Assembly (NCBI GenBank): GCA_048213135.1
Contig: PS015082.1
Location: forward strand, 292,344 to 324,964
Source of the DNA: Reclinomonas americana ATCC 50394
Lineage: Eukaryota
DNA length: 32,621 nucleotides
Reading direction: 5' to 3'
Shown: positions 1 to 32,621 of the stretch, piece by piece
Layout: each line of letters begins with the position of its first letter
How positions within the stretch are numbered: the stretch's first letter is position 1
Position numbers and translations under genes: made by a program
Notes under the pieces: model-generated
The model's input: only the letters and a program-made list of their open reading frames with translations
What the model was told of the DNA's origin: nothing
The model's database searches: none

Positions 1-3000
1 GCTGGCCGGTTCCACGCTGCTCACCATTCGCGGCGTCTCCTTCAGCGACAACCGATTCTCCACCGCCAATGAAGTGTGGATTGGCGGCGTGCCGTGCATT
101 CTGCAACAGCAGTACACCTCGAGCACCATGCTGGTGTGCTCGACGCCGGCCTTTGCCGACTCGGTCGACAGCAAACCCCAAGCGGTCACTGTGCGCGTCA
201 ACAAGCAGACGTACGCCACATGCGACGTGACGGGCGGCAGTGCAGCCTGCCTCTTCACCCCACGCTTCCGCGTCACCCCGATCGTGTACGAGATCTATCC
301 GTCGGCGGCGGTGCCTGGCGACACGGTGCAGTTCCGCGCACGCACCTTCACCGACTCACTTGCCGACATTCAGCTGCTGACGCTCGGCGGCGAGCGGTGC
401 CTGCCGGTCAGCGAAACCTCGACGCAATCGTTCCCGCTGCGCTGGGGCTTCAACAGTCGCGACTACTCCTACACGCCACTGTCGGCGCTGCCCGACAACC
501 TCCTGCAGTATGCCGACGCCTCTCCCATGTGCATGACTCCCGATCAGGCGGGTGGCCGTGTGGATGTGGCGCTCGCCATTGCTGGTCGCGGTATGGCGTC
601 GCTGGCCTCCTCGGCCATTCGTTACGGCTCCGGCAATGTCGCCTTTTCGTTTGCATCGGGTTTGTGCACCACCACCTCAGTTACTGTTGATTTCTCTGGC
701 CTCCTGACTTGTTGTGTGTCTCTCTCTCAGTTCCCGAAGTCCGCTCGGTGACACCGGCGACCGGCGGCGACCTCGGCGGCACTCTGCTCACCGTGCAGGG
801 CGTCGGGTTCACGCCGACGGGCGCCAATATGGCCGTCGATGTGTCGGGCTCGCCTTGCGATATTGTCAGCGTCAGTGACACGACGCTGGTGTGCCGCACT
901 GGCGCCGCCTCGCAGATGATCACGTCGATCGAGGGTCGCTACATGTCGGGTCGCGGCTTCCTGCGCGAGGTGTGGACCAACATCCCCGGCAAGTCGGTGG
1001 CCGACTTGCGCGCAGCAGCCTCCTTCGTTGCCGGCACTCCCAACGCTGTCGAATACGTTCTCGATCAGCTGCGCGCGGAGCCGCGTATCGATGCCACCGA
1101 CAACAAGAATTACGGCCAGCGTATGACAGGGTTCTTCACGAGCCAGGCCACCGGCTTGCACCAGTTCATTCTCACCGGCGACGACAGTGCCGAGTTGTGG
1201 ATGAATGTGCAGGGTGCGTCGCCGTCGGGTGCCACGCTGGTGGCCTCGTTGACGGCGCCGGCCATCAGTCCGTGGGATCGTACCGACCAGGCATCGCAGC
1301 CGATTCAGCTCGTTGCCGGGCAGCGGTACTGGATGCAGGTGTTGCACAAGCAGGATGCCAATGGCGACGGTTTCGTCCGCGTGCTTGTGCGCACGCCGTC
1401 TAGCGTGCAGCTGCCGCGCAGTATCGCTGCCGTGCAGGAGGTCGCGCTCACCACGACGGTGGTGCGCGAGGTGCAGACGGTGACTGCCACGGGCGCGTCT
1501 GGCGGCACCTTCCAGCTGGCTCAGAACGACAANNNNNNNNNNNNNNNNNNNNNNNNNNNNNNNNNNNNNNNNNNNNNNNNNNNNNNNNNNNNNNNNNNNN
1601 NNNNNNNNNNNNNNNNNNNNNNNNNNNNNNNNNNNNNNNNNNNNNNNNNNNNNNNNNNNNNNNNNNNNNNNNNNNNNNNNNNNNNNNNNNNNNNNGCCAC
1701 TGGCATTGAATGCAATCGGTCCCGACTCTGCATCAAGGCACGCGCACGTGAGATAGGCGGTCTCTCTTTCCTGTGGCATGCACAACAGCTAGCTCGCAAC
1801 TCNNNNNNNNNNNNNNNNNNNNNNNNNNNNNNNNNNNNNNNNNNNNNNNNNNNNNNNNNNNNNNNNNNNNNNNNNNNNNNNNNNNNNNNNNNNNNNNNNN
1901 NNNNNNNNNNNNNNNNNNNNNNNNNNNNNNNNNNNNNNNNNNNNNNNNNNNNNNNNNNNNNNNNNNNNNNNNNNNNNNNNNNNNNNNNNNNNNACCGACG
2001 TGAAGACTGTGCTGGAGCGCGACTTCCCCGAGCTCGGCACGGTGTCGGTCGACAAGGACACCACCTCCACACCCGGTTCCACCCTGTGGACCATCACTTT
2101 CGAGGATCCACTGCCGCTGAACCTGCAAGAGCGAGCCATCTTCTCTCCCGTCACTGCCTCCCTCCTGCCGGCGCAAGCCACGGTGGGCGTGGTGCGCAAC
2201 CGCCCGCCCTCCGCCCCCCTCGGTGGCACCTGGTCACTGACGTTTGCCGGACGCACGCTGTCGGGACTGGCGCCAGGCGTCTCGGCCGCCATGCTCGAGG
2301 TGCAACTGGAACAATTCTACGCCGCCGATGTTGCATACAACGTGTCGGTGTCGCGCATCGGAAACGGTCTCGACAGTGCCACCTTCCGCATCACCTTCAA
2401 CAACCTCACCGGCACCGTGCCACTCGTTGCCGTCACAAGCTCCCGTCTGACTGGTACCGACGCGGTGGGCGTGTCGCGCCCTGTCGTGTCGGCGTCGACC
2501 GACACGCTGACCACAATCAACGGTGATTTCATGGAGCTGGCGTACCAGGTGCCCAGTGTGCGTGTCCGCGTCAATGGCGTTCTCGGCGCCTGCCGCGGCT
2601 CCGCCAACTGCGCCTTCACGTACGACGCTGCTTTGACTCCACGAGTGGATCTCGTCCTCGGCAGCGATTCGGGAGCTGGTCAGGTCAGTCGGGAGAGAGA
2701 GAGAGAGAGCGCGCAAGTACTCGCTTTCGCACAAAATCTCATCGTCGTCCCCCTTCACACAGTTGCTTGTTATTCGTGGCAACTTCAGTGCCCGACCCGC
2801 CGACAACCGCGTGGTCATTGATGGTGTCGACTGCGCCATGTCGTCGTCGACAGCCACCGAGCTGCAGTGCACCACGGTGCAGTCGGGCGGTGGTCGGCAT
2901 CTGATCAAGGTCTACGTGGCTCCATTCGGCCTCGCCTCTGGCCAGTTCTACTTCTCGTTCGCCCCCAGTATCACCTCGGTCAGTCCGTCCGTTGGCGGTA

Positions 3001-6000
3001 TGCTGGGCGGCACCGATGTGGTTATCCGCGGCAACGGGTTTGCTCGTTTGGCCGCGAACAATCTGGTCACCATTGGCCAGATTCCGTGCCAGGTGCTCGA
3101 GGCGCAGCCCGATCGCCTCTTCTGCCGCACCGGTGCGTCGTCGACGGCCGGTGACGCCATTGTGAGTGCGGCAATCGCCGGTGTGACCACTGCCACCGCT
3201 CCTGCCGGCACATTCGCCTATGCGGCAAATGCCACTCCGACTGTCACCGACGTGTCGCCACAGTCGGGCTCGGCGGCCAGCACATCGGTGGTGCTGACGG
3301 TCACCGGTACTGGCTTCGATTCGAGTGTGCTGGCCAACAATGTGTTGACTGTGGGCACGGGCGCCAGCACACAGCAATGCACTGTGCTCACCGCGACACC
3401 CTCGCGCTTCACCTGCTCACTGCCGGCTCTCGGCGTGGGACAGTACGCCCTGTCAGTGCGGGTCGCCGGACGTGGTTCGGCCGACGTGCAGAATCGACAG
3501 TACACGGCCAGCTTCGCCATCGGCGCCATTTCGCCGCGCACGGGTAGCGTGAACGGTGGGCAGACCATCACCATCGACGGCGGCGTGTTCTCCAACGCCG
3601 GTACCAATATCACCGGCGTGCCGGAGGTCGTGTCACTCGGCGGAGTGCTCTGCAACCTCGTGTCGGTCTCGGCCAATCGCATCCTGTGCCAGACGCCGGC
3701 GCAAGCAGAGTCGACGGGACCGTTGAGCTTGAGCGCCAACGGCATCAGTGCCCAGTGCGCTGACGTGCCGGCCGACACTGGCGTACAGCCGTGCGCCTAC
3801 ACCTTCAGCCTCGCGTCCACTCCACGTGTGACAGCCATCAGCTCGACACTGGTGCGCACCAACGATGTGGTCACCCTCACAGGCTCCCTGTTCGCCACCG
3901 ACCCTACGTCCAACACTGTTCTCATCGGCACGTCGCCCTGTGCGGTACTGACGGCCTCGGCAACCAGCCTCACCTGCCGTGTGTCCAGCGGCAGCGCCAC
4001 GGCACGCCGCCTGTCGGTCAGTGTTCTTGTCGCCGGCCTCGGCTACGCCTCCACTTCGGCTTCTGCGCAGTACGCTGTCGTCGGTATGTGTGCATACATG
4101 CGCATGGTGTCGACTATTTCTTTCTTCTAAGCTGGTCGCCCACAGTCACTGGCGTGTCGCCGTCGTCGGGCGCCTCCTCCGGCGGCAACATTGTCACCAT
4201 TGTCGGCGAAGGCTTCTCGACAACCCTCTTGAAGAACACGGTCATGTTTGGCGCCACTGCCTGCACGGTGACACAGGCGGCCACCGATCGCTTGGTTTGC
4301 CGCACATCGGCTGGCTCCACCTCCGACGCTGGCAACACGGTGGTGACAGTGGACGGCGTGCAGGCGCTGTGTGGCAAGCCCGAGTGCTTGTACACGCCGC
4401 TGGCCGACTCGGCTCCGGTGGTCACCTCGGTGACGCCGGCCTCGGGTGGTCCAGGCACGCAGTTGTTGATCGACGGCGAGAATTTTGGCACCAACAAGTC
4501 GAGTTTGCACGTGTATCTGGGCGACACCGAGTGCACGATCGGCGACGCTGATTCGACGCACATTGAGTGCACAGTTGGACAGGTGTCGCAAGGAAGCCTG
4601 CCGGTGCGCGTCCTCATTGACGGTGTCGGCGAGGCCAGCTCCACCACCACCTTCCTCGTCCAGTTCTCCATTGGTTCTGTCACTGGCACACTCACTGGCA
4701 GCTACGCCGGCGGAACCGCCATCACCATTGCCGGCTCGGGTTTCAGCGGGAGTGCGACCGCCGTGCGCATCTGCGGCTGGCCATGCCGCAACATGCAGGC
4801 CACATTCTCCACCATTGTCTGCGACACGCCGCGCTTGATCAATGCCTTTTCCGTCACACAGTACGGGTTTGGCACGCCGGGTGCAGTGCTTGCTGGTACG
4901 CCTATTCGGTCGTCGGGCGGCGACCAGACCTCGTCGGCGTTGGCGGCATTTGACAGTGACATTTCTGGCGTGTTCACCGCCTCCGGCTCCAACTCGTTTG
5001 TCGGTCTCGACGTGGGCCAAGATTTGGAGGCCGTGCTCACCTCCATTCGCTTCCACCCGGCGGTGACTGCCGACTCGACGGGCGTCGACTCCATGCTCAA
5101 CGGCGTGTTCGAGTCGTCAGCCGACGGCCTCTCCTGGTCCACCATGGCGGTGCGCGTCTCCGAGACATTCTCTCTCTCTGTATTTTCTCTTGTCACTCAC
5201 ATCGCCATTCTGTGTGTTTGTTGTTAGACCATCACTGTCACACCATTCACCAACTGGAACACGATCCGCATGGCTTCGTCGACGCCGGTGACGGCTCGCT
5301 ACTTCCGCTACCGTGGAGCGCAGAAGACCATGGTGGCCGAGATCGAGTTCCGTGGCCTGCTGCGCAGCTCGCGGAACGACGGTCGCTGCCCGATTCGCAT
5401 CTCGGCCGGCTCGCAGTCGGCGCTGACGGCCTCCCAGACGTTTGTGTACTCAGCGGCACAGACACCAGTAATCACGCAAATGACACCCAACCGTGGCTTG
5501 GCGATCGGCGGCACACGTTTGACGCTCACTGGCACCAACTTGTCGACAGCCTCCAACGGCATCGCAGTCACCATTGGTGGCGTAGCGTGCCAAGTGGCTC
5601 AATCGACCAGCACGCAAATTGTGTGTCTGACGGCAGCTCGTAACAACAGTGCGCCGAATCAGCGCTTGGTGGTGCTCTCGGACGGCCGTCGTGCAGCACT
5701 TGCCGCGGGCGTCTCGTTCGCATACATGGATTTGTGGTCGTCGCCTGCGACGTGGCCGTCGGGCGCGGTACCAGTGGCCGGCCAGTCGGTGACCATTCCG
5801 GCCGGGCAGTCGATTCTGCTCGACCAGTCCACGGGCCTTCTCGGTACCGTCACAGTGGCGGGTGAATTGGTGTTCGACCGCAAGGATCTCAACATGGATG
5901 CGATCCTCATCCTGGTTCCTGCCGGTGGCCGCTTGGAGATCGGCACGGAGGCGGAGCCGTTTGTGCAGCGTGTCACCATCACTCTGTACGGGCAGCGTCA

Positions 6001-9000
6001 GGCCAGTGATCGTGGCGTGGCTCCCTTTGGCAACAAGGCGATTGGCGTGGACTCGGGCATTCTCGAGCTGCACGGCGCAGTTCCACTCATCACCTGGGCG
6101 CCACTCGGATCCTCGGTCGCCGTCGGTGCCACCAGCATCACTCTGGCGAATTCTGTCACGTGGTCGGCCGGCCAGTCCATCGTCATTGCGCCGAGCGGAT
6201 TCGCTAGCACCGAGGCCGAGCAGCGCACCATCACGGCCGTGTCGGCCGACGGGCGCGTCCTCACCTTGGATACGCCGCTGACGTACGCGCATTACGGAGC
6301 CATTGAGGATGTGACTGGCGACGGCAACGCCGCCGGCCAGTTGGACATGCGTGCGGAAGTGGGCTTGCTGTCGCGCAACATTGTCATTCAGGGCGATGTT
6401 GACTCTTCGGAGGCCGACCAGTACGGCGCACATGTCATGTTCATCTCGACGGCCGGCGACAATGGTGCGATTGGTCGCATTGAGGGTGTGGAGCTGCGAC
6501 GAGTGGGTCAGTCGAACGGTACCGGCCGCCATCCGATCTACTTTAACCAGATCGGCGACGTCAGCCAGTCCTACGTGCGCAACTGCTCGATCTACAACAG
6601 CTACAGCCGCGGTCTGGTGATGCAAGCGGTCAACAATCTCTCTGTCGTGAACAATGTGGCCTACAGTTGCGCACTCCTTTTCTCCTTCCCCCCTCCTGTT
6701 CGTCTCCCTCCTCTCACAGCACTCATTGACGCCTCGCACAGACATTCGTGGTCATGCATTCTGTCTGCATGACGGCGCCGAAAGGGGGAACGTCCTCACC
6801 GGCAACTTGGCCATTCGCGTGCGCTCGTCGACCTCGCTGGAGGAGAGCGACTTGCTGGCTTCCGGTTTCTACGTGACCAGCCCGACAAATACGCTCAATT
6901 TCAACGCGGTCGGCGGTGCGGGTGGATTCGGCTTCTGGTACAACCCGCCGGAGAGTCCTCTCGGCCCGTCGTACGTGCCCAACGCCTGCCCCGTCAACGA
7001 TCCGCTTCTGGTTTTCAGCAACAACTCGGCACACTCGTGCGCATGGTCTGGCTTGCGCATCTCGGATCGTTACGATCCGCGCCAGCAACCGTGCATCGGC
7101 GGCAGCTACACCGACAACCCCGCAGTGCCGGCCACCTTCACCTCGTTCACGGCCTACAAGAACCAGCGCAACGGCCTGATGGCCTTCAGCGTCGGCGCCG
7201 CCACCTTTGTGGACTTCCGTGTCGCAGAGAACCGCCTGGCTGGCTTGGAGGTTATTCGCGCCACGGGTCCGGCCGGCTCCACTCGCTTTGTGAACGCCAT
7301 CTCCGTCGGTCTTACCAAGAACGACGTCGGCGGTCACAACGCAGACTTCAACCCGGTGGGCATCCGCACTGCGCAGAGTGAGGGATTCCGTGTTGACGGA
7401 GTGACGTTGGTGAACTGGAGTGCCAGCAATGTGGTGGCGCTTCAGTCGTGTGCGCAGTGCGCCTCCACCGATTTCCGCAGCAACGGCGCCTTCACCACGA
7501 TTTTCACCGGTGTGCGCTGGATCAACACCTCTCGTCGCATCCAGTGGGGTCCACTGCGCAAGGACATCTACAAGAGCGAGGACAACACTCTCATCCCGTC
7601 GGTGCCGCAGGCCACCGTGACGCCCAACTGGCCGCACTTGCGGGTGACGAACTGCACGGTGAATGCCGATCTCGACGACTCCCTGGTGTGCGCCAGCTCG
7701 GTGACGATTCGTCGCATGAGCATGTGGAATCTGCAGCCGTTTGCGGCGCTCAACGGCCAGCCGTTGCTCATCTCACGCAATGGCGACGTGTCAAGCGTTC
7801 CGTTCCAGTCGCAGTCCAACCCCTCCAATGGCTACGCCATTGGCATGGCCATGGGCGAGTCGTACACGGTGGGCTTTGACGGCGCCCTGGACTGGACGTT
7901 CTTCAACATGCGGTTCGACTCGCTGGCCGCCGCCGACACGCTCAAGCTGCGATTGCCTTACAGTGGCTTCCGCACCAACTTGCTGGTCGACACGGACAAC
8001 ATTTTGCGCTCTTCCAGCTCGCAGACCGACGTCGACAAGTCCACGGCCAAGCACGGCGTCTTCTTCCACAACACCGATCAGCGTTACATTGATGTGCGCA
8101 TTTCGGGCACGGGCCCCGGCACGCCGCTTCTCACCATGTACTCGGACCTGTGCCCGACAAGTGTGTGCTCGACGGCGCCGGAGGATGGCTCGCAGGCGGT
8201 GACGCGCCGCTGGAGCAATGTCGGCACGTGGCCCACGGGCACACTGCCGGACACGGAGGACTACGTGCTCATCCCAAGCGGTGAGACCGTTCTGTACGAC
8301 CTGCTGTCATCGCCAGTGTTCGCCACGGTCGAAGTGCGCGGCACGCTCACATTCGACTCGACGTTTGCCACGCTCAACACCAAGCGCATGTGGATCAATG
8401 GCGGCACGGTGAATGTGGGCACGGCGACGGAGCCGTGGCCGTTCCGCGGTGGCATTATGCTGTACGGCACCGAGCAGGGCAATGCCTCGCCGGCCTCGGT
8501 GAATGCCAGCGAAGCTCCAATTCCAGCAAAGACCATTCTCAACGCAGGCACCCTGGCCATTTACGCTCTTCCGCCGAGGTGTGTAATTGCTTCATTTGTT
8601 CACTCGATGTGGTCTCGTCTCCTCAAGCTGCCTCTCTCTCTCTCGCAGCCACTCGTTCTCCAAGTTGGCTCTGGATGCATCGCCAAAGGACAGCGTCATC
8701 CAAGTCGTCGATGCTGTGCAGTGGTTGCCTGGCGACACCATCATTATTGCGTCGTCTGAGCAGGCAGCCGACCAGGCCGAGCGTCGCATGATCATGTCGG
8801 TGGCTAAGGGTGCGGGTGGCGTTACGTCTTTGGCCCTCGATCAACCGTTGCAGTACCGACACCAGGTACGACCCTTCTCTATGAAGCAGGCAAACATTTC
8901 TGCGAGTGACACTCATGATCCATTGTGTATGCAGGGATCGCTTGTGCGCGCAGGCACGGCCAGCATGGATACGCGGGCCGAGGTTGCACTGCTGAAGCGC

Positions 9001-12000
9001 TCGTTCACCATCCAGAACGGTGACAATGCCGACACGGTCCGCTGCAATGTCATCACTCTCGGCGCGGCCACCACCACCCTGTCCAATGTGGCATTGACCG
9101 GCTGCGGCGGTGATCAGCGTCCGGCGTTGCGCTTCCTCGGTGTGTCATCGGCGTCGCAAGTCGTCGGTTCGCTGGTCAATCTGAGCGGCGGCATCGCCCT
9201 GGACATTGAGTCGAGTGCCGGCGTTGTTGTGCGCTCGAGTGTCTTTGCCGGCAGTGTTGGCAGCACGGTGCGCGTCACCGGCCTCGCCAACATTCTCACC
9301 AACAACCTGTCGCTGGGCGCCACGGCACCCACGCCGGCTGCCAACTCGCCTGCGGCTGTGGTGGCTTCGTACGAGATTCTGTCGCCCACCACATTCGCCG
9401 ACAACATTGCCGCCGGTTCCACTGGCATCGGCTACCTGGGTGTCTTCGACTCGTGCACGTCACCGACACCACTGATGGGTGCGGTGACGGTCCATTCGTC
9501 GGCACACGGCGTGTTCGTGTTGCCGACTGATGAGCAGCAGAGCTGCATCGCCGTGCGCAGCGTCAATGCCTTCTCCAACCGCGTGGCTGGCGTGTACGCC
9601 AACGTGCGTGCCAATGTGATTGTCACCGACAGTCGCCTCGTCGGCAACCAGAATGGCGTCGTCCTCATGCACGCCGATCTCGGCGACTCGCGCAACAACA
9701 TGCAAGTGTTGAACACGATTGTGCTCGGCAGGTGAGTGTGTCGTTTGCGCTTGCTTTTCCCTGCCAGACGAAAATCTCCTTGTTTCTAAATCACGGGTTC
9801 TCGCCTTTGCTGCAGTCGCGGACCGACCGAGTGCAACAGCAATGTGGGCATTCGATCGGCGTCGTTCACCAATGGCCTCAAGGTGTGTGTCTCCGTCTCC
9901 GCAAGGTGACTTTGTTTCTCCGTCTCACTCCCTCACTTTGTTTTGCGTGCCCCAAATGAACAGGGTCTTCCGTCGGCCATGCCCGCGCAGACTGAAACAT
10001 GGCTGATGCCGGCCGGCACGGCGGCGATTGACGGCCAGTTCAACCTGAAGGCAGTGACATTTGGCAACTTTTTCGACAGCTCCACGGCCTGCGCCAGCAC
10101 CAGCCGTGCGTTTGCCAACAACAAGTGGGCGCGCGATTCGTTCCACAAGCACACATTTGAGGGCATCACGTGGCTCCCTACTGTTGATGAGGCCGCCAAG
10201 TTCCTGCTGCAGTCCAGTGGCTCGACGTTGCGTGCGACATGACACGACAGGTCTCCGTATGCTGACTCTGCTCACTCGCTGCTTTCCCCGCACTCAGTGG
10301 CGATGCCACGACGGGAGTCGTGTTGTGGGATCTCGATGGCTCGTTGGTGGGCTCTGCCATGTCTACACCCGCCACCAAGGCATTCGTGGTCTCCAACAAC
10401 CCCACGCTGGCGGATGGCCAGCGATGCCAATCAGTTTCGAGTTGGAACGCATTCAAGGTCAGTACCTACCTGATGACGCACAGCGCGTGTTGGCTGACCT
10501 GACCACCTCGATGCAGTGCGCGAATTTGAGCTACGTGCGTGTGCTGTTGCACAACCTGGACTCGGATGGCGAGAGCCNNNNNNNNNNNNNNNNNNNNNNN
10601 NNNNNNNNNNNNNNNNNNNNNNNNNNNNNNNNNNNNNNNNNNNNNNNNNNNNNNNNNNNNNNNNNNNNNNNNNNNNNNNNNNNNNNNNNNNNNNNNNNNN
10701 NNNNNNNNNNNNNNNNNNNNNNNNNNNNNNNNNNNNNNNNNNNNNNNNNNNNNNNNNNNNNNNNNNNNNNNNNNNNNNNNNNNNNNNNNNNNNNNNNNNN
10801 NNNNNNNNNNNNNNNNNNNNNNNNNNNNNNNNNNNNNNNNNNNNNNNNNNNNNNNNNNNNNNNNNNNNNNNNNNNNNNNNNNNNNNNNNNNNNNNNNNNN
10901 NNNNNNNNNNNNNNNNNNNNNNNNNNNNNNNNNNNNNNNNNNNNNNNNNNGAGACGTGCGGCCGCGTCCAAGGACGACGACGCCACTCCAATGTTCATGT
11001 CGATGACAACAGACGGTAGCGCCTGCAGAGCCGTCACCGGTGCGCTGAATGTGGTGACAAATGTGCTCTTCCACGTCGTGGCGTCAAAGCTGTTGGTGCC
11101 ACCGACATCCACCACTGTAGGGCGCGTGCTCTTCCACGGCTGCGCCTTGCCTCCGCTAAACACTCGCACGACCGTCGGCGACGAGTACTGCACAGTGGTC
11201 AGCAGCAGATCGCCCTGCTGCGCATCGCGGAGCGCCAGGCGAAGGTTGGCCGGTGTGGCGCCCGCCAGCGAGAGCTGCAGGTCGCTGCCAGACGGCACCG
11301 TGAACGTGAACATGGGTGCCACAGAGCCGTCGCTCTGCGCCGTGGGACCGGTGACAATGAGCGGCTTCGGATCGCCGCCCGACGGCAGCACCACGGCCAG
11401 CGTGAGCGGTCCAACGACACGNNNNNNNNNNNNNNNNNNNNNNNNNNNNNNNNNNNNNNNNNNNNNNNNNNNNNNNNNNNNNNNNNNNNNNNNNNNNNNN
11501 NNNNNNNNNNNNNNNNNNNNNNNNNNNNNNNNNNNNNNNNNNNNNNNNNNNNNNNNNNNNNNNNNNNNNNNNNNNNNNNNNNNNNNNNNNNNNNNNNNNN
11601 NNNNNNNNNNNNNNNNNNNNNNNNNNNNNNNNNNNNNNNNNNNNNNNNNNNNNNNNNNNNNNNNNNNNNNNNNNNNNNNNNNNNNNNNNNNNNNNNNNNN
11701 NNNNNNNNNNNNNNNNNNNNNNNNNNNNNNNNNNNNNNNNNNNNNNNNNNNNNNNNNNNNNNNNNNNNNNNNNNNNNNNNNNNNNNNNNNNNNNNNNNNN
11801 NNNNNNNNNNNNNNNNNNNNNNNNNNNNNNNNNNNNNNNNNNNNNNNNNNNNNNNNNNNNNNNNNNNNNNNNNNNNNNNNNNNNNNNNNNNNNNNNNNNN
11901 NNNNNNNNNNNNNNNNNNNNNNNNNNNNNNNNNNNNNNNNNNNNNNNNNNNNNNNNNNNNNNNNNNNNNNNNNNNNNNNNNNNNNNNNNNNNNNNNNNNN

Positions 12001-14740
12001 NNNNNNNNNNNNNNNNNNNNNNNNNNNNNNNNNNNNNNNNNNNNNNNNNNNNNNNNNNNNNNNNNNNNNNNNNNNNNNNNNNNNNNNNNNNNNNNNNNNN
12101 NNNNNNNNNNNNNNNNNNNNNNNNNNNNNNNNNNNNNNNNNNNNNNNNNNNNNNNNNNNNNTGTAGGTGTCGGCGTTGGTGTCGGCGTCGGTGTTGGTGT
12201 CGACTGCAAGAGAAAACGCGCGAATGAGTGAATTGAGTGGGGCACTGCAATGTCGCAGCGAGAAAATGCGTACCGGATTCGACGGCGTCACAACGTCGGA
12301 CTGCACCGACGACGGCGACTGTGAGCGCGTTACGGTCGTCGTGTTGACGGTGACGTTGGGCACCAGGGTGCCGTCAAGCAGGGACGTTCGAATCTGGTTG
12401 GCGATGGCGGTGAGATCCATGGCCGCCAGTGGTGTAAAGTCGGCCGAGAGCGTGCCGAGGTTGGCCGCCGCTGCACTCGTATCAATCACCGCCCACATGA
12501 AACGTGTGCTGGCTGCCGCCTTGTAAATCGACTGTGAAGCAACACGCAGCAACCGAGGTAAGTTGCTCTTTCTTGCTTCATGCATTCCGGCAGGAAAAAC
12601 GCAACGTCGGCCTTCAGCAAGTGCACCAGGTCGGTCTTGCTGTTCAGACCCAGCTTGCCAGCAATGTACTCNNNNNNNNNNNNNNNNNNNNNNNNNNNNN
12701 NNNNNNNNNNNNNNNNNNNNNNNNNNNNNNNNNNNNNNNNNNNNNNNNNNNNNNNNNNNNNNNNNNNNNNNNNNNNNNNNNNNNNNNNNNNNNNNNNNNN
12801 NNNNNNNNNNNNNNNNNNNNNNNNNNNNNNNNNNNNNNNNNNNNNNNNNNNNNNNNNNNNNNNNNNNNNNNNNNNNNNNNNNNNNNNNNNNNNNNNNNNN
12901 NNNNNNNNNNNNNNNNNNNNNNNNNNNNNNNNNNNNNNNNNNNNNNNNNNNNNNNNNNNNNNNNNNNNNNNNNNNNNNNNNNNNNNNNNNNNNNNNNNNN
13001 NNNNNNNNNNNNNNNNNNNNNNNNNNNNNNNNNNNNNNNNNNNNNNNNNNNNNNNNNNNNNNNNNNNNNNNNNNNNNNNNNNNNNNNNNNNCCGACACCC
13101 ACACCGACGCCGACACCCACGCCAACGCCGACGCCGACGCCAACACCGACACCCACACCAACACCCACACCAACACCAACACCGACGCCGACGCCGACAC
13201 CGACACCAACGCCGACGCCAACGCCAACGCCGACACCGACACCGACGCCTACGCCGACGCCGACACCCACAAACCCGTCGACGGACGAGGACAAGTCGAC
13301 ACCGGCCGATGGCGGCAGTCAGACGGCAGTCATTNNNNNNNNNNNNNNNNNNNNNNNNNNNNNNNNNNNNNNNNNNNNNNNNNNNNNNNNNNNNNNNNNN
13401 NNNNNNNNNNNNNNNNNNNNNNNNNNNNNNNNNNNNNNNNNNNNNNNNNNNNNNNNNNNNNNNNNNNNNNNNNNNNNNNNNNNNNNNNNNNNNNNNNNNN
13501 NNNNNNNNNNNNNNNNNNNNNNNNNNNNNNNNNNNNNNNNNNNNNNNNNNNNNNNNNNNNNNNNNNNNNNNNNNNNNNNNNNNNNNNNNNNNNNNNNNNN
13601 NNNNNNNNNNNNNNNNNNNNNNNNNNNNNNNNNNNNNNNNNNNNNNNNNNNNNNNNNNNNGTTGGTGCCGTTGTTGGTGGTGTCATTGGCTTGCCGCTGG
13701 TCATTTTGATTGTGTGGCTGACGGCTCGCTGGTTCCGCAACCGCAAGAGCGGCCCGTTGGGTCCGCGTAATGCGGCCGCCAACTACGGCGCGGCAGCGTC
13801 GGAGGCCTCCACGCACCCGCACCAGCGCGAGCAGCCGTCGTGGTTCAACGACGACGATACGGCCACCGAGCAGACTGCCGTCGATCCGACGCCACGCACT
13901 GCGCGTGGGCACAAGGGTGGCGTCGCGCTGCCGCCGGCTCCACCGGTGCCACCGCGTGCCGTCAACTCATCTGCGCCACTGTCGCCACGCTCCGGCAACG
14001 TCTCACCGCGCCGTGGGTCGGCCGGCACACCGCGCTTGCCGCAGCTCACTCCGCGCCAGCACCAACAGCAGCAGCAACAGCAACAGCAGCAGCAGGTGGC
14101 AGCACACATGGGTCGCAGCGATCGTGGCATGATCAACTCGCCATTCGCGCCGCAGATGGAGGACGGCACCGACACTGCGCCGACCGTCACCGAGACAACA
14201 CACACATCACGCAGTGGCCGTCCCCTCCTGCCGGGCACCGGCAGTGGTGGTGTGGGTGGGGAGATTGCGCCGCGGCGCACACCGCGCACACGCGAGGCGG
14301 ATGCTGCACCGCCAAACTCGGCACGCAGCGTGTCTGGCGTGACTCTGACCACGGAGACTCCTCGTTCGGCGCGCGCACAGGCGGCGGCGACGGAGGCCGA
14401 GCGCAAGGCCGTGGCCGACGCGCTGTTTGACGAATCGAGCTCGGCGAGTGCGATTGGCAACACGACCGCCCGCCGTCGCAGCGAGACAAGCGCACTCGAT
14501 TTGCTGGATCAGGCACTGGCCAGTGAGCTGTCGCGTATGAACGGCGCGCAGAACTTTGTGCGCGTGCGCCACGGCGAGTACATTTGCAACGGCGATCACA
14601 TTACGGTGTGGGCGGCCGACGGTCGCATCTTTGTGCGCTCCCGCGGTCGCGTGATGCCACTGGCGTCGTACATCACCGACAGATCACTGTCGTCGATGCA
14701 AGGCAGCTCGACGAGCATTGACTTTGAGGATGTGTTTTGA
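1..14740 (+). CDS. Fibrocystin-L/PKHD1L1-like giant type I membrane protein (5' partial, multi-exon)
   Basis: Inferred exons: <1-659, 731-1532, [part of inverted 1696-1802], 1994-2683, 2763-4083, 4146-5149, 5228-6665, 6742-8578, 8649-8865, 8935-9731, 9816-9882, 9964-10226, 10298-10457, 10517-10577, [inverted 10951-11421 and 12162-12671], 13092-13334, 13661-14740. The GT-AG introns keep the frame. It has many IPT/TIG repeats (e.g. PSITSVSPSVGGMLGGTDVVIRGNGF), PA14, two G8 domains, parallel beta-helix segments (HPIYFNQIGD...SYVRNCSIYNSYSRG) and PKHD1L1-like C-terminal motifs (LDSDGES, GATPANLRLAL), then a PT stalk, TM and tail. Orthology is not established. Confidence 0.88.
946..1400 (+). other. 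PA14 domain within gene 1
   Basis: GRGFLREVW...NYGQRMTGFFTSQATGLHQFILTGDDSAELW...IQLVAGQRYWMQVLHKQ, with the typical DD motif. Confidence 0.8.
1696..1802 (-). other. Gap-flanked fragment of gene 1 in reverse orientation (one intron plus short coding piece)
   Basis: The reverse complement reads GA|gttgcg...gatgcag|AG TCG GGA CCG ATT GCA TTC AAT GCC AGT GGC. It joins 1532 and 1994 in frame to give QNDKKSGPIAFNASGTDVKTVLE. Confidence 0.8.
4880..5360 (+). other. F5/8 type C (discoidin/CBM32-like) galactose-binding-fold domain within gene 1, split by intron 5150-5227
   Basis: AAFDSD...FVGLDVG...IRFHP...FESSADGLSW...ARYFRY...VAEIEFRG. Confidence 0.7.
5730..6080 (+). other. G8 domain 1 within gene 1
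   Basis: WSSPATWPSGAVPVAGQSVTIPAGQSILLD...GRLEIGTEAEPF...ITLYG...GILELHG. Confidence 0.85.
8205..8578 (+). other. G8 domain 2 within gene 1
   Basis: WSNVGTWPTGTLPDTEDYVLIPSG...VRGTLTF...INGGTVNVGTATEPW...IMLYG. Confidence 0.8.
10951..11421 (-). other. Gap-flanked coding fragment of gene 1 in reverse orientation
   Basis: The minus-strand frame RVVGPLTL...LAGATPANLRLAL...GTNSFD...AARL continues the PKHD1L1-like sequence after LDSDGES (10577). Confidence 0.85.
12162..12671 (-). other. Gap-flanked fragment of gene 1 in reverse orientation (3 exon pieces, 2 introns)
   Basis: The minus strand reads EYIAGKLGLNSKTDLVHLLKAD|SIYKAAAS...VTPSNP|STPTPTPT and runs into the plus-strand PT repeat at 13092. 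Confidence 0.8.
13092..13271 (+). repeat. Coding (Pro-Thr)n stalk repeat (CCN ACN hexamers)
   Basis: About 30 PT dipeptides before the TM segment of gene 1. More copies lie in the inverted piece at 12162-12203. Confidence 0.95.
13661..13733 (+). other. Transmembrane helix of gene 1
   Basis: (AVI)VGAVVGGVIGLPLVILIVWLTARW followed by basic RNRK. Confidence 0.85.
14063..14095 (+). repeat. Coding polyglutamine (CAG/CAA) tract
   Basis: QQQQQQQQQQQ in the cytoplasmic tail of gene 1. Confidence 0.9.
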
Positions 14741-14871
14741 GGCGGGCGAGGAGTGTGGAACAGAGAAAAATATATAGAGAAACCATGTAACGAAAAACAA
14801 ATGAACGCCATGTTACCGATTGATGTGAAGAAACGATCGATATCAAGCAGGCAAGGGTCGTCGATGCTCTC

Positions 14872-16074
14872 TCAGTGGAGGACCAGTTCCTCCAACTGCA
14901 CGTCAGGGGAGAGTCGAGTGAGAAAGCAAATACATCAGCACACACAAGGAGAGAGAGGAGTAAAGCTTGTACGCACCGAGTACTCCTTCTCGCGAATGTT
15001 GCGGAAGGGTCGGTCGCCGTCAACGTAGAAATCTGGAGCGAGATGAGGAGGTGGCATGCAGGGGACATAGATTGCAGTCGCCGTCTCACCGTCGTACTTG
15101 AGGGCCACGGCACTGCGGAAGCCGAGCGTCAACAGACCACGCTGAGAGAACTCGCCGGTCGACTGGCCCACCACGCGACCAAAGTGCAACTGGCGCGCCC
15201 GCTGAACGCTGAGTTCCTCGAGAGTCGACATGATGCCCTACACGTGTGTGTGTCAGCCGCATGCAAGAAAAGTCAAGTCTGGTGGGAGCCGCGATCAGCA
15301 GACAGACCTTGTTGCGATATCGAGGACCGGCCTTGACGCCACCAATGAGCAACTGGAGCGTGTCGTCGAGGACGGTGCCGGGTTGGAAGCCGCGCTTACG
15401 GGCATACTCGTCATCCACGTACTTACTGGCGGCCAGCAGAGCGTCGGCAGCCGGGTGCGCCGCCAGCCACTCCTTCCAGCCCGGAGGACGTGGCGATCCG
15501 AACACCTGATTCAGCAGCACACCGACCATCGAGTTGTCGGTCTTGGAGAAGGCGCCAAACGACAGCCCGTTGCCCTGCGCATGGAAGAAGAGGTGTGTTG
15601 ATCAGAGATCCAGAGTGTGTGTGTGAAATGGAGACAGCCACTGACCGCGCAGTAGGGAGCGTACAACGCAGCGTATCCGGCCCACCACTCGTCGCCAATG
15701 CCTGCGTCGAGCGTGTGTGTATGAGAGAGTGTACGATCAAAGAGAGAGAGAGAGAGACTCACCGATGGCCATCGAGATCGGCTCATGCAAAAAGCTGCGC
15801 GACAAGACCACTGCCGCCTCATCGGCATCCGCCGGCCGCAGCTCACGAAACGTGACAAAGAACGACTCACGCTCCGGTGCCTTGGCACTGCGCAGAAGCC
15901 ATCAGTCGCAAAAGCAGCGCTGAACAAGCAACAGCAGAGACAAGAAAGATCGCACCTGTGAGCATCCAACGGCTTGCGCACTGCTGCAGTCGTCGACATG
16001 CAAGCAACAGAGGCGATCGTCATCGCTCTTCTGCAGAGAGCAGCACGAGGCAACGAGAGCGCCATTGTCATCAT
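14872..16074 (-). CDS. GNAT-family N-acetyltransferase (insect AANAT/dopamine N-acetyltransferase-like), about 264 aa
   Basis: Exons 16074-15956, 15887-15763, 15701-15646, 15574-15308, 15237-15090, 15032-14977, 14895-14872 splice in frame. Motifs: FRELRPADADEAAVVLSRSFLHEPI, motif A GVKAGPRYRNKGIMSTL, and STGEFSQRGLLTLGF...KYDDFYVDGDRPF. Confidence 0.8.
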
Positions 16075-16172
16075 CGCGTTGTCAGCGCTGAGATACCAAG
16101 GAGGATGCGAGGGCGATTCCCAGCAGATCGTCGATCAAACGACTAGTGGACACCAGTGCGATTGTATCATCG
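16075..16172. promoter_or_regulatory. Putative bidirectional promoter/5'UTR region between the GNAT gene and MIA40
   Basis: Divergent start codons only 98 bp apart; position-based inference only. Confidence 0.5.
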
Positions 16173-18083: not shown

Positions 18084-19791
18084 ATGGAGCACGTGCGTGT
18101 GGGCGAAGGAGTCGACTTTGGTGCGTGGTTCGACAAGCCACGCCACCAAAAGTACTTTAGTGGCATCTTGTCGCAGTTGCCCTTCCCGTTCCAGGTGAGC
18201 AATGCACTCACACACAGCACACACAGAGCATGCCAGTGAGGGTGTCCATTGAGAGAGAGAGAGAGAGAACGAGCATGGGGGAGACAGCGAGTGAAATGCT
18301 CAGTGATAGAGCATGCATTCATCATCATCATCATCAATCTCTATCTTTGACGCAGACTCTCGATCCGAATCGACTAATGTTGGTGTACTTTGCGGTGTCG
18401 GGCTTGGATCTGCTGGATGGTCTGCACTTGTGTGATCGGGCGGCGATCACTGAGTGGGTAATGTCGGCATTCGCGGCCGATCCAGTCGTGTTTGAGGGCG
18501 CAGGTGGTTTCCGACCGGGCCCTTTCCTCGGCTTGCCCTTTGCTCCGGTAACTACTGCTGCTGCTGCAGCTGTTGTCGCGTGGGAGAGACGGTTGATTGT
18601 CGATCTCGTGCAGGAGGAGCGACGGAGAGCGGTGCACGACAACTTGCCGCTGGCGCAGTTTGACTCGCCCCACCTGGCCATGACGTACACGGCGTGCTGC
18701 ATTCTGCGCATTCTGCATCAGGGCGCGACGCCGTATGTGCCGCAGTTTGAGCTGGAGCCAGTGCGACGGCTGTTGCGTGCCACGCAGACGGAGAGTGGGA
18801 GGTGAGTGGTTGGTTCGGCGGCGGTATCGGCGATGCGGTGAACTCACTTGCGACGTAGCTTCCGTGGCTACATGGGCTCGACGGAGACGGACATGCGGTT
18901 TTTGTTCTGCGGCAGTGCCATTGCCGCGATGCTCAATCTGTGGGATGCCTACGACAAGGACACAGCAGTGCAGTATGTGCGGAGCAGTCAGGTGCGATTG
19001 CACGCGTGTGACTCGCTTGCTGCGTTCTTTCCTAAATCCCACATCGCAGTCATGGGATCACGGTCTCGGGCAGTCGCCGGGACAGGAGTCACAAGGTGTG
19101 ACGCGATGTGGCGTCTGCTCCTTCCTCTCTTCGCTTTCCTCACGCGCGACATGCACAGGCGGTTCAACGTTTTGCGGCGTGTCATCTCTGGCTCTGATGG
19201 GTCGCCTGGACGACTTCCACAGCCGCGACGAGCTGGTCGACTGGTGCGCGAAGCGGCAAGTGGGCGGCTTCCAGGGTCGTCCCAACAAGGATCCCGGTTG
19301 CGTCCTTGCTTTTTCTGCAACGTGCGCTGCCGAGTTCCCTCGATTGACCGCGGTTGTGCAGACACGTGCTACTCGTTTTGGATCGGGAGCTCGCTGTCGA
19401 TTCTCGATGCCTACGAGTACGTGGATGTGTCGAGTGCAGTGGACTTTGCACGGCAGTGCCAGGACGCTCGGTGAGTGTGCCGACGTCGTTCTCTCTGCTT
19501 TTTTGTCGCTCACAGTGAACCGCCTTTGCGACAGTGGCGGCTTTTCAAAATTCCCCGGCATTCGCGCCGACCCCATGCATGCGTACCTCGGTCTGGCTGG
19601 TCTGTCGTTGATGGGTCATCCAGTTGCGTTGGCTTTCTTGCCTGAGTGCCATTCCCCTCCCCACTCCACGCTCACTCACGTTGCTCAACAACGCGCAGGA
19701 CGTGGCGCGGCTGGATCCGTGCCTCAACATTTCCGTTCGTGCATCGGGTGAGCTGTACACGGCACGCGCAGGCGCTGACGCAGCCGAGTGA
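18084..19791 (+). CDS. PGGT1B: Protein geranylgeranyltransferase type I beta subunit
   Basis: Exons 18084-18194, 18356-18547, 18614-18801, 18859-18991, 19050-19095, 19159-19296, 19362-19470, 19535-19622, 19699-19791. Motifs: HQKYF...LP, LDPNRLMLVYFAVSGLDLL, HLAMTY, ETDMRF, GGSTFC, GFQGRPNKDPDTCYSFW (Zn ligands D and C), GGFSKFP...DPMHAYLGL. Confidence 0.92.
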
Positions 19792-28469: not shown

Positions 28470-31400
28470 ATGGCCGACGCCACTGAACTTGATGCCTCCT
28501 CCGCAGTGAGACCACAACCTTTGTCACAACAGCCGCAGCGGTTTCAGAGACCTCTCGCTTGGGCAGTGAGCATCTCGGCTGCTGCGTGTTCGGCCCTCGG
28601 TGCCTTTGCACTCGCCACCAATCACTGGCTGTTGCGTGTCTCGTGCAGTGCTACAGAGAGAGAGGGGGGTGGTGCTGACTGACTGTTGACCGCGGGTGTG
28701 TTGTCGCAACGCAGCACAATTAATTGTTCTGTTGACGACCCGGCATTCGCCACATCGTCGGGCTTGTCTACCGGGTGTGTACGCGCGCGCGTGTGTGTGT
28801 ATGTCCGCTTAACCTGTTTCGCCTGCGTGTGTACTCATGATGTGAGTCGGGTGAGTGCAGCTCAACGTGCATTGCCAGTCGACCGTGCACATCATTTTCG
28901 GTAACCACCGATGCAGCTAAACTGGTGAGCGGCGGCGCCTTCTCTTTGGCGTCTGTTGACCGCGACTGATCATGTGCATGTGTGTGTGTGTGTGCTCTGA
29001 CAGTGTCTGGCTCTGGGGGCTGCGGGAACTGGGCTGATGGGAGCCCTGGCAATTCTGGCAACCATTCACGCCGTATCTGCACGTCGCTGGACCAAAGCGT
29101 GTGGCGTGGTGCGTGTGTGTGTCACGCTGACGCGACCTGACTTGCTGCACTCACGTTGTGCTTGTGTCGGCAGGTGGCGGGCTCGGTGAGTGCCATTCTC
29201 TGGCTGGTGGCGGTGGCCTACTTTACGGCAAAGACGAACCGCGCCTCGACGTGTTCATCCGGTGCCAAGATGGCGTGGGGATACTCGTACATTGTAGCAT
29301 GGTGAGTGGGGGTTGCTTGTCCTCGGTGGTGTGCGGTCACCGGCATCATTATATTCAACGAGGAGTGTACTGTTACATCCGCGCAGGTTGTTTGGCCCCT
29401 TGCTCGGTACATTACCAGCCGTTGGCTCGTGGTGGCTTTTCATGCCAGCCCCCTCGCCTCGCACCTCCAAGGCCAAGTACGCCGTGCAGCCGGCGGCAGC
29501 ACCACGCGATGTCACGCAAGGCTGGGAGGCGACGAATGTAGAGGTGAACGTGGCGCCCGTGTCACCGGACGACGCCAGTCGCAAGAAGAGGAGGCGGAAG
29601 CGCAGCGCCAACGGGACAAGCATTGCTATCGAGAACGACGGCACTGCCTTGGTGCTGTCACCCTCGGGGAAAACAGCACTCACGCCACGACGGCAGGAGC
29701 AAGACGGTGCCTCCACGAAGACCGACTTGGTGAATTTCGTGGCCTCACCCGAGTCGCACAAGTCGTTTGAGGAGGTGCGTCTGCCAAAGACGCACAGCTC
29801 CGCCGGCGTGGAAGATGCTTTTGCAGAGCATCGAGCGCGGTTTGGTCCGAGCGAACTGGCAGCCGAGGCGCCTCGTGTGCCACGGCGTCTGCATTCCCCG
29901 CCACCGCCGAAGCGCGAGGCATCAGAGGGAGGCGATAGCACTGCACGCTCGTCGGCCTCGTCGACGGGCGAGTTGCCCCCGCCTGCACAACTCGACAGCG
30001 ATCCGGCCGATGCCGACGACGATGCGGTGGGTCGACAAGGAGAAGAGGAGCAGGAGAATGTGGAGCAGCAGGAGGAGGAGGGCGGCGTCCAGTTGCAGCA
30101 GCGCATCGACCAGCCACGTTCGTCGCCGTCGTCCATTGCCCCGTCGTCCTTTATGTCACCAACAGGGGGTGCGTCGTCAGTGGCCTCAAGAGCGCAAGCG
30201 GACGGGCGTGCGAGATTCGACGATTCCGTCGCCAAGCCTGCCGGTGGCGCACGGTTACATTCGCCACCGCCACCTCCAAGAGACGCGAGCGACGAAGAGG
30301 ACGAAGACGAAGAAGAAAATGTGGAGAAGCCGGCAGCAGCAGAGGGTCATGCTCGTTTCGGCGGCGACGTAGCCGGTCACGAGAGCCGACATCACCTGAA
30401 ATCACCGCCACCACCACCTGCAGACCAGGCACTGGAGGAGGAGGAGGAGGAGAAGGAAGGAGAGGACGGCGAAGAGGATGCACCGGGTACAGGCGATGCA
30501 GTGGAGGTCGAGTCGCGCGCGGCTTCGCACGCTCACTTTGGCGGTGACATTGTCGGCCACGAGAGCAGGCATCGACTGAAATCCCCACCGCCACCACCCG
30601 CACCGACAGATGAAGAGGAGGAGGAGGAGGAGGACGAAGAGGAACGTGGCGATGTGGAGGAGGATCATGGTGCAGGCGATACAGCATCACATGCGGCTTC
30701 GCACGCTCACTTTGGCGGTGACATTGTCGGCCACGAGAGCAGGCATCGACTGAAATCACCGCCACCACCAGCACCGACAGATGTGGAGGAGGACGACGAC
30801 GCCGAAGAGGAACGTGATGATATGGAGGAGGCACAGGGCACAGGCGATACAGTGGAGGTCACGTCGAATGCGGCTTCGCACGCTCACTTTGGCGGTGACG
30901 TTGCCGGCCACGAGAGCGGGCATCGACTGAAATCTCCACCGCCACCCGCACCGACAGATGCGTCGATGGATGACGAGGAGGAAGGAGCGGGCGAAGAGGA
31001 GGCACAGGGCACAGGCGATGCAGTGGAGGTCGCGTCGCATGCGGCCTCTCACGCTCACTTTGGCGGCGACATTGTCGGCCACGAAAGCAGGCATCGACTG
31101 AAATCACCGCCACCACCAGCACCGACCGAGGACGAGGAGGAGGAGGACGAAAAGGAACGTGGCGGTGTGGAGGAGGATCATGGTGCAGGCGACGCAGCAT
31201 CACATGCGGCTTCACATGCTCACTTTGGCGGCGACATTGTCGGCCATGAGAGCAGGCATCGACTGAAATCACCGCCACCACCAGCACCGACCGAGGACGA
31301 GGAGGAGAAGGAAGAAGACGACAGGGGAACAGGTGACGCTCACCAGGCTCACCAGCCACTTGTGGATGAAGCCGTGCCACTACCAGTCGAGCAGTCGGAG

Positions 31401-32621
31401 AAGGCTGTCACGACTCCAGTGGCTGCAGAAAGATCTTCCACTCCACCTCGCCGCCGCTCTGTACCACAACAACCTGCAGCTGTTCCAATGTCGCCAGCCG
31501 CAACCGTGGAGAACCGTGCCGTCTTCAGCACAATCGGCAACCAAGAGCCCCACCAGCAGCAACCGTCATCGCAATCAGCGTTGCCAGCGGAGCAGTCCCC
31601 GGTGAACGAGCGATCGGTTGCGAATGTGCAATGCACCGAGGAGGCATCGCCTGTATTCGTGGAGCCAGTACCGCTTCCACCGTCGGCACTGGTATCACCT
31701 TGCACGGAACGAGACGAGCAGACGCACGTGGAGGCAAGTGCTGAACCGCTCCCTGCCAGCGCTGAACAGTCGGAACCCTCGGTCACAGACATTTTGTCGT
31801 CGACCGCCGCCTCAGCAGCTCCAGTGCCACCGCCACCTGTGGTACGATCAGGCACCACTCGCGGCAGCGTGGAGGGAGTGCAAGTGGAGCGTCAGCCACC
31901 GACTTCCGCGGCGCCCAAGGAGGACAGCCCTCGAGCACAGCCGCAGCAGCAGCAATCGAGAAGCTCCAACCCGGCAATCCCTGCAACGGCCGTCTTGTCG
32001 GCTGCCGCTCTGGCCGAGGACGTAGTGTCTGCCACACCGACCGAGACGGAGCCACCAACGAGTCAGCTGGCCACTCCCACGAGTGCGACGGAGTGGAGCG
32101 CGCCACAGTCACCCACAGCACCAGCAGTGCTCATTCACGACAAGCCCTCTGCGGCAGCGGCTGTGATCGACGCAGACAGCGACACCGACAGTGCGAGCAT
32201 GGCGCCGTCACTGGTGAGTGCCGAGCTTGTGGCCTCGGAGGTGCCATCGAGCCAGGTCACGCCATCGCAGCCGACATCCAGTGTGTCGGTGCAATTTATG
32301 ACGCCTGCTGTGGAGACGCCGGCAGCAGAAACAACGAGTCAGCAACACCCTGTGGCACCGCCGGCGAGCCCGGCAGTGGCGGAACCTGCAGTTGAGCGCA
32401 ATGTCCCCAACACGCAGCCTTTACAGAGAGTGGCCAGTGTGGAAGGCCTGGCTGGCGTACCTGTGATGCCGCCAGTGTCTTCTGCATTGCAGCAGCAGCC
32501 GCCGCCACCGCCAACAGAGTCACCGCCGGTCTCACCTGCGCCGAAACTGCCACCTGCAACACCGCCACCAGCCGAGTCTTCGGCGGTCGCCGCACCCGGC
32601 ACCGACGTCACTGACTTGTTC
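28470..32621 (+). CDS. Claudin/PMP22-superfamily-like tetraspan membrane protein with very long disordered C-terminal tail (3' partial)
   Basis: Exons 28470-28630, 28715-28774, 28861-28924, 29004-29108, 29174-29301, 29387->32621. There are four hydrophobic segments, a first loop ATNHW...GLSTGSTCIASRPC (W-GL-C-C-like) and GYSYIVAW at TM4. The last exon is open to the window end, so the ORF track omits it. Confidence 0.72.
30348..31290 (+). repeat. Coding tandem repeat, 6 units of 165-180 nt (core HAHFGGDIVGHESRHRLKSPPPPAPT + acidic linker)
   Basis: Cores start at 30348, 30528, 30702, 30879, 31050 and 31215. The spacings (180/174/177/171/165) are all multiples of 3. Confidence 0.93.

Follow-up and report, generated by a model that had tools for sequence, protein, structure and literature searches.

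What does the cytoplasmic side of a fibrocystin-like surface protein connect to? Fibrocystin and fibrocystin-L are disease genes (for ARPKD, the autosomal recessive form of polycystic kidney disease, and for hearing loss), yet little is understood about what they do at the molecular level. The question is raised in a protist by a 32,621-nucleotide stretch of Reclinomonas americana ATCC 50394 (GCA_048213135.1, contig PS015082.1, positions 292,344 to 324,964, forward strand). This stretch, hereafter the window, contains exons for a fibrocystin-L-like ectodomain and, further downstream on the same strand, a frame for a transmembrane (TM) helix with a long tail. An earlier reading of the same letters (the original prediction) proposed that the receptor ends in a cytoplasmic GAR (Gas2-related) domain tethering it to microtubules. 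On balance we favour the following explanation: 14453-14680 would encode a divergent, zinc-free GAR-like domain that ends the ~340-residue cytoplasmic tail of a single-pass membrane protein.

The tail is encoded by a stop-free frame of 359 codons on the plus strand (13661-14737, stop codon 14738-14740), which starts at the first base after an N gap. In order, it encodes a TM helix, a predicted disordered stretch of about 250 residues, a compact domain and an acidic end of 18 residues. The parts were delimited by translation and composition, by AlphaFold2 (AF2) with its predicted local distance difference test (pLDDT) and, for the domain, by Foldseek and the ESM Atlas:

13661-13747, plus strand: TM helix (VGAVVGGVIGLPLVILIVWLTA, 22 residues, 13661-13726) and basic juxtamembrane stretch RWFRNRK (translation, AF2)
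13748-14452, plus strand: disordered cytoplasmic linker rich in P, S, T, A and Q (composition; pLDDT mostly below 50)
14453-14680, plus strand: predicted GAR-like domain (AF2, Foldseek, ESM Atlas; no Pfam GAS2 match)
14681-14740, plus strand: Ser-rich acidic C-terminal end (RSLSSMQGSSTSIDFEDVF, 18 residues) and stop codon (translation; pLDDT below 50)

The segment 14501-14683 translates to LLDQALASELSRMNGAQNFVRVRHGEYICNGDHITVWAADGRIFVRSRGRVMPLASYITDR, which is the string given in the original prediction with one leading L added. A codon-usage score derived from the TIG/G8 exons upstream favours this frame: the domain reaches +0.46 bits per codon, the whole tail +0.23, and the five other frames are negative. 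The TM region is modeled as a helix at residues 2-29 with pLDDT 89-94. The order of TM helix and basic stop-transfer stretch predicts a cytoplasmic tail, in line with the earlier proposal.

The linker contains eight S/T-P sites, seven of which are S/T-P-R (13889-14360) and look like targets of proline-directed kinases, as well as a poly-Gln run. It also carries one PxxPxR motif, PPVPPR (13940-13957), which presumably resembles a class II SH3 ligand. The protein terminates in ...SIDFEDVF (14684-14737); we take the acidic ...EDVF end with its hydrophobic last residue to resemble a class III PDZ ligand or an endoplasmic reticulum export signal. Unlike GAS2 proteins and spectraplakins, the tail contains no CH domain, EF-hands or spectrin repeats alongside the GAR-like domain, and no SxIP motif.

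The tail was modeled by AF2 from the single sequence in two runs, one with the 89 C-terminal residues and one with the full 359 residues. The model of the 89-residue end has a mean pLDDT of 75.8 and a predicted template modeling score (pTM) of 0.60, with core blocks at 81-88. It forms a helix (8-22), five strands (29-33, 36-39, 42-49, 52-57 and 60-63) and a second helix (64-69). The full-tail model contains the same elements at pLDDT 57-70, and its ordered parts are the TM helix and the terminal domain only. In tail numbering, helix 1 (265/278-293) is followed by β1 (FVRVR, 299-303), β2 (EYIC, 306-309), β3 (DHITVWAA, 312-319), β4 (RIFVRS, 322-327), an RG hairpin, β5 (RVMP, 330-333) and helix 2 (LASYITD, 334-340). 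This order matches a published account of the GAR domain, in which two helices flank an α/β sandwich built from five antiparallel strands (PMC10656233). The predicted domain shares with the GAR domains of GAS2 proteins and spectraplakins (PF02187; MACF1/ACF7, dystonin) the succession of helix, five antiparallel strands and helix within ~70 residues. Like them, it is placed C-terminally or nearly so, behind a long flexible stretch.

Both models were compared with 350,542 PDB chains using Foldseek, the structural check that had been suggested for the terminal residues, and GAR structures rank at the top in both cases. The GAR entries found with model 1 are:

Rank 1: 1v5r, Gas2 domain, E 0.043, probability 0.99
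Rank 2: 5x57, ACF7 GAR, E 0.075, probability 1.00, TMt 0.62, root-mean-square deviation 3.1 Å over 70 columns
Rank 3: 5ve9, ACF7 EF-GAR, E 0.31, probability 0.96
Rank 5: 9kbw, GAS2-GAR on a microtubule, probability 0.93

With model 2, the same four entries (1v5r, 5x57, 5ve9 and 9kbw) occupy ranks 1-4 with probabilities of 0.94, 0.91, 0.90 and 0.75, and the next match falls to 0.06. Over both lists, GAR entries have probabilities of 0.75-1.00 versus at most 0.41 for all other matches. The ESM Atlas, which compares protein features, points to the same family. Its top three clusters are all PF02187 (0.90, 0.89 and 0.88, with 203, 198 and 197 of 256 features shared; the tool's own mark is 170), and all ten of the best family-bearing matches lie in a common family or clan. 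With the PF02187 clusters excluded, the search returned no usable named match. Because ESM features and AF2 with Foldseek agree on one rare family, the likeness is hard to ascribe to chance. We consider it quite probable that the terminal domain takes a GAR-like fold.

In GAS2, tubulin is bound through β3, β4, β5 and helix 2 with complementary charge. The contacts are K237 and R242 (β3), R252 (β4), the G254-G256 hairpin, W257 (β5), and K266 and H267 (helix 2) (PMC12084551). The conserved Gly-Gly-Gly hairpin connects β4 to β5 and is followed by the Trp, which inserts into the intradimer groove of tubulin. Mutations G255E, W257E and K266E weakened binding ~14-, 40- and 15-fold, and R252E gave the largest loss (PMC12084551). 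We mapped the tail domain onto GAS2 through its secondary-structure elements rather than through an aligned GAR sequence, and the residue correspondences are accordingly putative. The predicted sheet is rich in arginine, with R301, R303, R322, R326, R328 and R330 distributed over β1, β4, the hairpin and β5; the only basic residue of β3 is His313. The Arg in the ..VR.. of β4 falls where GAS2 R252 lies. An Arg in β4 and a basic sheet may be features that the domain has in common with the GAR domains of GAS2 and spectraplakins. Of the GAS2 contacts, only this β4 Arg and one hairpin Gly look retained. The GAR consensus used in the original prediction was compared with the description in PMC12084551 (R252 in β4, G254-G256 hairpin, W257 in β5).

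The ectodomain to which this tail would belong is encoded upstream:

2-10577, plus strand: fibrocystin-L/PKHD1L1-like ectodomain exons, with the 5' end open in the window (Pfam matches, exon/intron reading)

The order of its parts is IPT/TIG arrays, a first G8 domain with a CEMIP-type β-helix, a second G8 domain with a β-helix, and short exons separated by introns of ~80 nt (GT..AG). Strong Pfam matches come from plus-strand open reading frames (ORFs) between 2 and 9735, and short plus-strand exons run on to 10577. TIG matches were obtained in four ORFs (1.1e-13; 1.5e-50 with five stretches; 1.6e-39 with three stretches; 4e-16), giving ten stretches in total. The two G8 matches have E-values of 3.8e-31 and 4.1e-16, and the CEMIP_beta-hel matches, one behind each G8, 2.6e-18 and 1.4e-19. 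The best database matches to the first G8 region are fragments of fibrocystin-L from animals, at 36-37% identity. Given these TIG, G8 and CEMIP matches and this identity, the name fibrocystin-L-like in the original prediction was correct.

The scaffold is eukaryotic, with ~60% GC, GT..AG introns of ~80 nt and seven N runs. Four of these gaps lie between the ectodomain exons and the tail (10578-10950, 11422-12161, 12672-13091 and 13335-13660; 1,859 nt in total), and they delimit three small contigs:

10951-11421, minus strand: 471-nt contig between two N gaps, an open, β-rich, ectodomain-like piece of 157 residues (codon score)
12162-12671, minus strand: 510-nt contig between N gaps (translations and codon scores)
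13092-13334, plus strand: (Pro-Thr)n stalk of ~60 residues followed by NPSTDEDKSTPADGGSQTAVI, which continues into the gap ahead of the TM helix (translation in frame 2, direct repeat family)

The first contig has a codon score of +0.417 in its minus frame versus +0.098 in the best plus frame. Its product has weak matches to PPC β-sandwiches (Pfam E 0.0058; PDB 5dyn, E 0.019). The second contig, read on the minus strand, contains an exon, an intron, an exon and an intron, followed by the start of a (Pro-Thr)n repeat at its low-coordinate end. Its minus-strand codon scores are +0.559 and +0.483 versus ~0 on the plus strand, and it has no match in Pfam or PDB searches. A BLASTP comparison of the minus-strand pieces with a set of 79 proteins, made to look for fibrocystin relatives, gave nothing significant (best E 0.012, a bacterial protein). 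An inverted repeat links 12162-12202 with 13092-13271 at 82-90% complementarity. Since the Pro-Thr end of the second contig is the inverse of the Pro-Thr run at 13092, the contig, once flipped, runs into that repeat. Both minus-strand contigs are probably mis-oriented pieces of the same gene. They are most simply accounted for by a break of the assembly within the Pro-Thr repeat, after which small contigs were placed backwards. A scaffold orientation error of this kind would break automatic gene models here.

All visible pieces between 10577 and 13661 are coding by codon usage, and none looks intergenic. In the resulting model, the ectodomain would be joined to the TM helix and tail by a membrane-adjacent module and a Pro-Thr stalk, split by the assembly into gapped, partly mis-oriented contigs. 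We infer that the TM anchor and tail are most probably the C-terminus of the upstream TIG/G8/β-helix protein. However the upstream part connects, one gap-free frame holds both the TM helix and the GAR-like domain.

Several results weigh against the favoured explanation, and they are best considered together with its rivals. At the sequence level, none of six cuts of the tail matches Pfam GAS2 (PF02187) at E≤10; as HMMER filters discard most matches above ~E 0.1, the score lies clearly below the Pfam gathering threshold. The domain thereby differs from the GAR domains of GAS2 and spectraplakins, which the profile describes, in lying below profile detection. The original prediction had named the lack of a profile or structural match to the GAR fold as grounds for giving it up; the profile match is indeed missing, and the structural one was found. 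Searches with phmmer gave no match at E≤10 among PDB sequences, and neither a GAS2 protein nor an orthologue among 1.84 billion representatives. At the structural level, no Foldseek match reaches E≤0.001 (the best is 0.043, and identities are 14-19%), and both AF2 models were built without an alignment. These results would fit an unrelated or lineage-specific small α/β domain, in which the GAR likeness is a deep-learning fit to a common helix/β-meander/helix pattern. Frataxin/CyaY-type sandwiches do appear lower in the Foldseek list, where E-values are only 0.04-0.5; shuffled proteins reach a first ESM match of at least 0.9 in 4-10 of 100 cases, and no orthologue was found for a conservation test. 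Such a fit would, however, have to explain why two different methods meet on the same rare family and why four GAR entries outrank ~350,000 chains with two models. The best ESM cluster, moreover, lies well over the tool's mark, and nothing else emerges when GAS2 is left out. We regard an unrelated domain as improbable. A different difficulty lies upstream, where four N gaps and two contigs coding on the opposite strand part the ectodomain from the tail. The Pro-Thr stalk, TM helix and tail (13092-14740) could then be a separate small mucin-like membrane protein, its start concealed by an N gap; in that case either the end of the fibrocystin-like gene lies somewhere else or the minus-strand pieces are a genuine third gene. 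Consistent with this, PF02187 occurs in none of the 73 G8/TIG proteins among the matches listed, in a search confined to proteins of 901-2570 residues. Against it, every visible piece is coding, unlike the A/T-richer flank that follows 14740, the contig at 12162-12671 passes from an ectodomain piece through an intron into the matching Pro-Thr repeat, and a TM anchor is expected in the fibrocystin family. We give a separate gene little credence, and even if it were real, the TM helix and the GAR-like domain would stay in one frame.

A further set of contrary results concerns the ligand. In GAR domains, zinc is held by Cys-Cys-Asp-Cys in the helix 1-β1 loop and the loop after helix 2 (PMC10656233). 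Zinc is pivotal for the fold, and mutations in the zinc site of MACF1 disrupt microtubule binding (PMC12084551). Here, in contrast to GAS2 and the spectraplakins, the zinc site is absent. The 359-residue tail holds a single Cys (residue 309, YIC in β2), the two loops read RMNGAQN and TDRSLSS, and at most the Asp is kept. The Gly-Gly-Gly hairpin is replaced by an R328-G329 turn, and β5 (R-V-M-P) has no Trp, the only Trp being in β3; turn and strand together read R-G-R-V in place of GGG-Trp. Helix 2 has neither Lys nor His. The original prediction had anticipated both the missing Cys pair and the altered hairpin. A close precedent is SNAP1 of T. brucei, whose C-terminal GAR-like domain lacks three of four zinc ligands and four of five basic residues. 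Recombinant SNAP1 bound no microtubules in vitro, and its GAR domain was dispensable for localisation (PMC10656233). Since this degenerate GAR did not bind, microtubule binding is not readable from the fold alone. The fold evidence applies equally to a degenerate GAR without zinc whose role is protein-protein interaction, for instance in recruiting adaptors or microtubule-associated proteins. Such a role has been proposed for SNAP1 and for GAS2L3, whose GAR domain binds Survivin/Borealin (PMC10656233), and PPVPPR and the C-terminal -EDVF offer other docking motifs in the tail. Unlike in SNAP1, however, the six sheet Arg in β1, β4, the hairpin and β5 are kept, including one at the β4 position where GAS2 R252E gave the largest loss (PMC12084551), and no partner is known or predicted. 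A GAR-like fold that binds no microtubules is a doubtful reading in our view, and docking on a microtubule-associated or other partner is likewise somewhat unlikely taken by itself. We put forward direct microtubule binding tentatively, as the likeliest single ligand and not as the majority outcome; the probability that remains goes to the unrelated small domain. The complete proposal of a fibrocystin-L homologue whose zinc-independent GAR domain binds microtubules directly, and so mechanically wires a giant receptor of the surface or ciliary coat to microtubules of the cortex or axoneme, is unlikely to hold in all its parts.

Under the favoured explanation of a zinc-free GAR-like domain on a membrane protein, the disordered S/T-P-R-rich linker may serve as a tether that is flexible and probably regulated by phosphorylation. 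Through its Arg-rich sheet, the terminal domain would dock the receptor on the acidic microtubule surface or on a microtubule-associated partner. In this way, a very large protein of the surface or ciliary coat would be linked to the cytoskeleton.

GAR-related domains are not restricted to animals. GAS2 domains are also present in unicellular opisthokonts, in fungi and Amoebozoa, and in a ciliate (PMC9145010). The CGAR protein of T. gondii has a C-terminal GAR domain for which binding to subpellicular microtubules is predicted (PMC10105704). SNAP1 and CGAR resemble the predicted protein in that C-terminal GAR or GAR-like domains are found in unicellular eukaryotes. SNAP1 is also similar in that most zinc ligands are missing and the domain was recognised by modeling on 5x57, not by strong sequence similarity (PMC10656233). 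By description, not sequence, the two differ from it in being soluble coiled-coil proteins, whereas the domain discussed here lies behind a TM helix. SNAP1 further differs in having lost four of five basic residues and in not binding microtubules, whereas the tail domain keeps six sheet Arg.

Animal fibrocystin-L (FPC-L) and fibrocystin (FPC) also contain IPT/TIG arrays, two G8 domains and PbH1/CEMIP β-helix units. Their single TM helix near the C-terminus has a counterpart here if the ectodomain and tail are joined across the gaps. The cytoplasmic parts are different. The FPC-L tail has 9 residues and the vertebrate-specific FPC tail 192 (PMC13424714), the latter carrying a ciliary targeting sequence (PMC13424714; PMC2812845). 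The earlier statement that animal PKHD1 and PKHD1L1 have no GAR-like domain agrees with these tails as described (PMC13424714). The tail in the window, in contrast, has ~340 residues, a different make-up and a predicted folded terminal domain, and a Pro-Thr stalk precedes the membrane, unlike in the animal proteins.

In the papers cited here, GAR domains have been reported on soluble cytolinkers (CH-GAR proteins and spectraplakins) and on coiled-coil parasite proteins. Here, the GAR-like module is on a predicted TM protein instead of a soluble cytolinker. A literature search, covering papers without their supplements, found none that joins 'GAR domain' and 'fibrocystin', and none among the matches listed that joins 'GAS2 domain' with 'transmembrane' and 'G8 domain'. 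If true, placing such a module behind a TM helix would offer a new route from the cell surface to microtubules, and the GAR domain would have to be defined more broadly to take in a version that folds without zinc. The weight of these points is limited by a single gapped assembly, structures predicted without alignment and the absence of an orthologue in our searches. If the receptor's domain does bind microtubules directly, no earlier GAR protein would have been a transmembrane one. Microtubule coupling would then be hinted at as an early role of the fibrocystin family that animals have since lost or replaced. What the fibrocystin ectodomain signals to could be framed as a testable hypothesis with a protist homologue whose cytoplasmic effector domain can be interpreted.

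Other searches with the domain gave the following. A scan of metagenome contigs produced 599 pattern matches, of which tblastn confirmed 0, and tblastn against the window detected no second copy. Six phmmer matches of the 89-residue end at E≤1e-3 were rejected as spurious. They are repeat proteins (WD40/PQQ-like, CHU_C Ig, LamG, DUF7151 and one 5014-residue repeat protein) in which weak β-hairpin repeats are summed; Pfam scans cover five of them, and local alignments cover the full six.

The 3' flank past 14740 is A/T-richer. Two minus-strand ORFs, 14676-15128 and 15514-16134 (window 14741-16134), run convergently towards the tail gene's 3' end, ~140 nt past its stop, and have no Pfam match. 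The plus-strand ORF 18684-19748 encodes a prenyltransferase α-α toroid domain (Pfam 3.9e-24). Its best relatives are the geranylgeranyltransferase type-1 β subunits of animals and Mucoromycota, with 28-37% identity, none of them close. Taken by itself, this pattern would fit a deep-branching Amorphea or opisthokont-like protist. At the end of the window, a plus-strand frame of 1108 codons (29298-32621) is open at its 3' end and has no Pfam match. Its product is rich in Ala, Pro, Glu and Ser and looks like a disordered repeat protein, with about seven tandem repeats of ~65 residues, ASHAHFGGD[IV][VA]GHESRHRLKSPPPP..., each followed by an acidic run.

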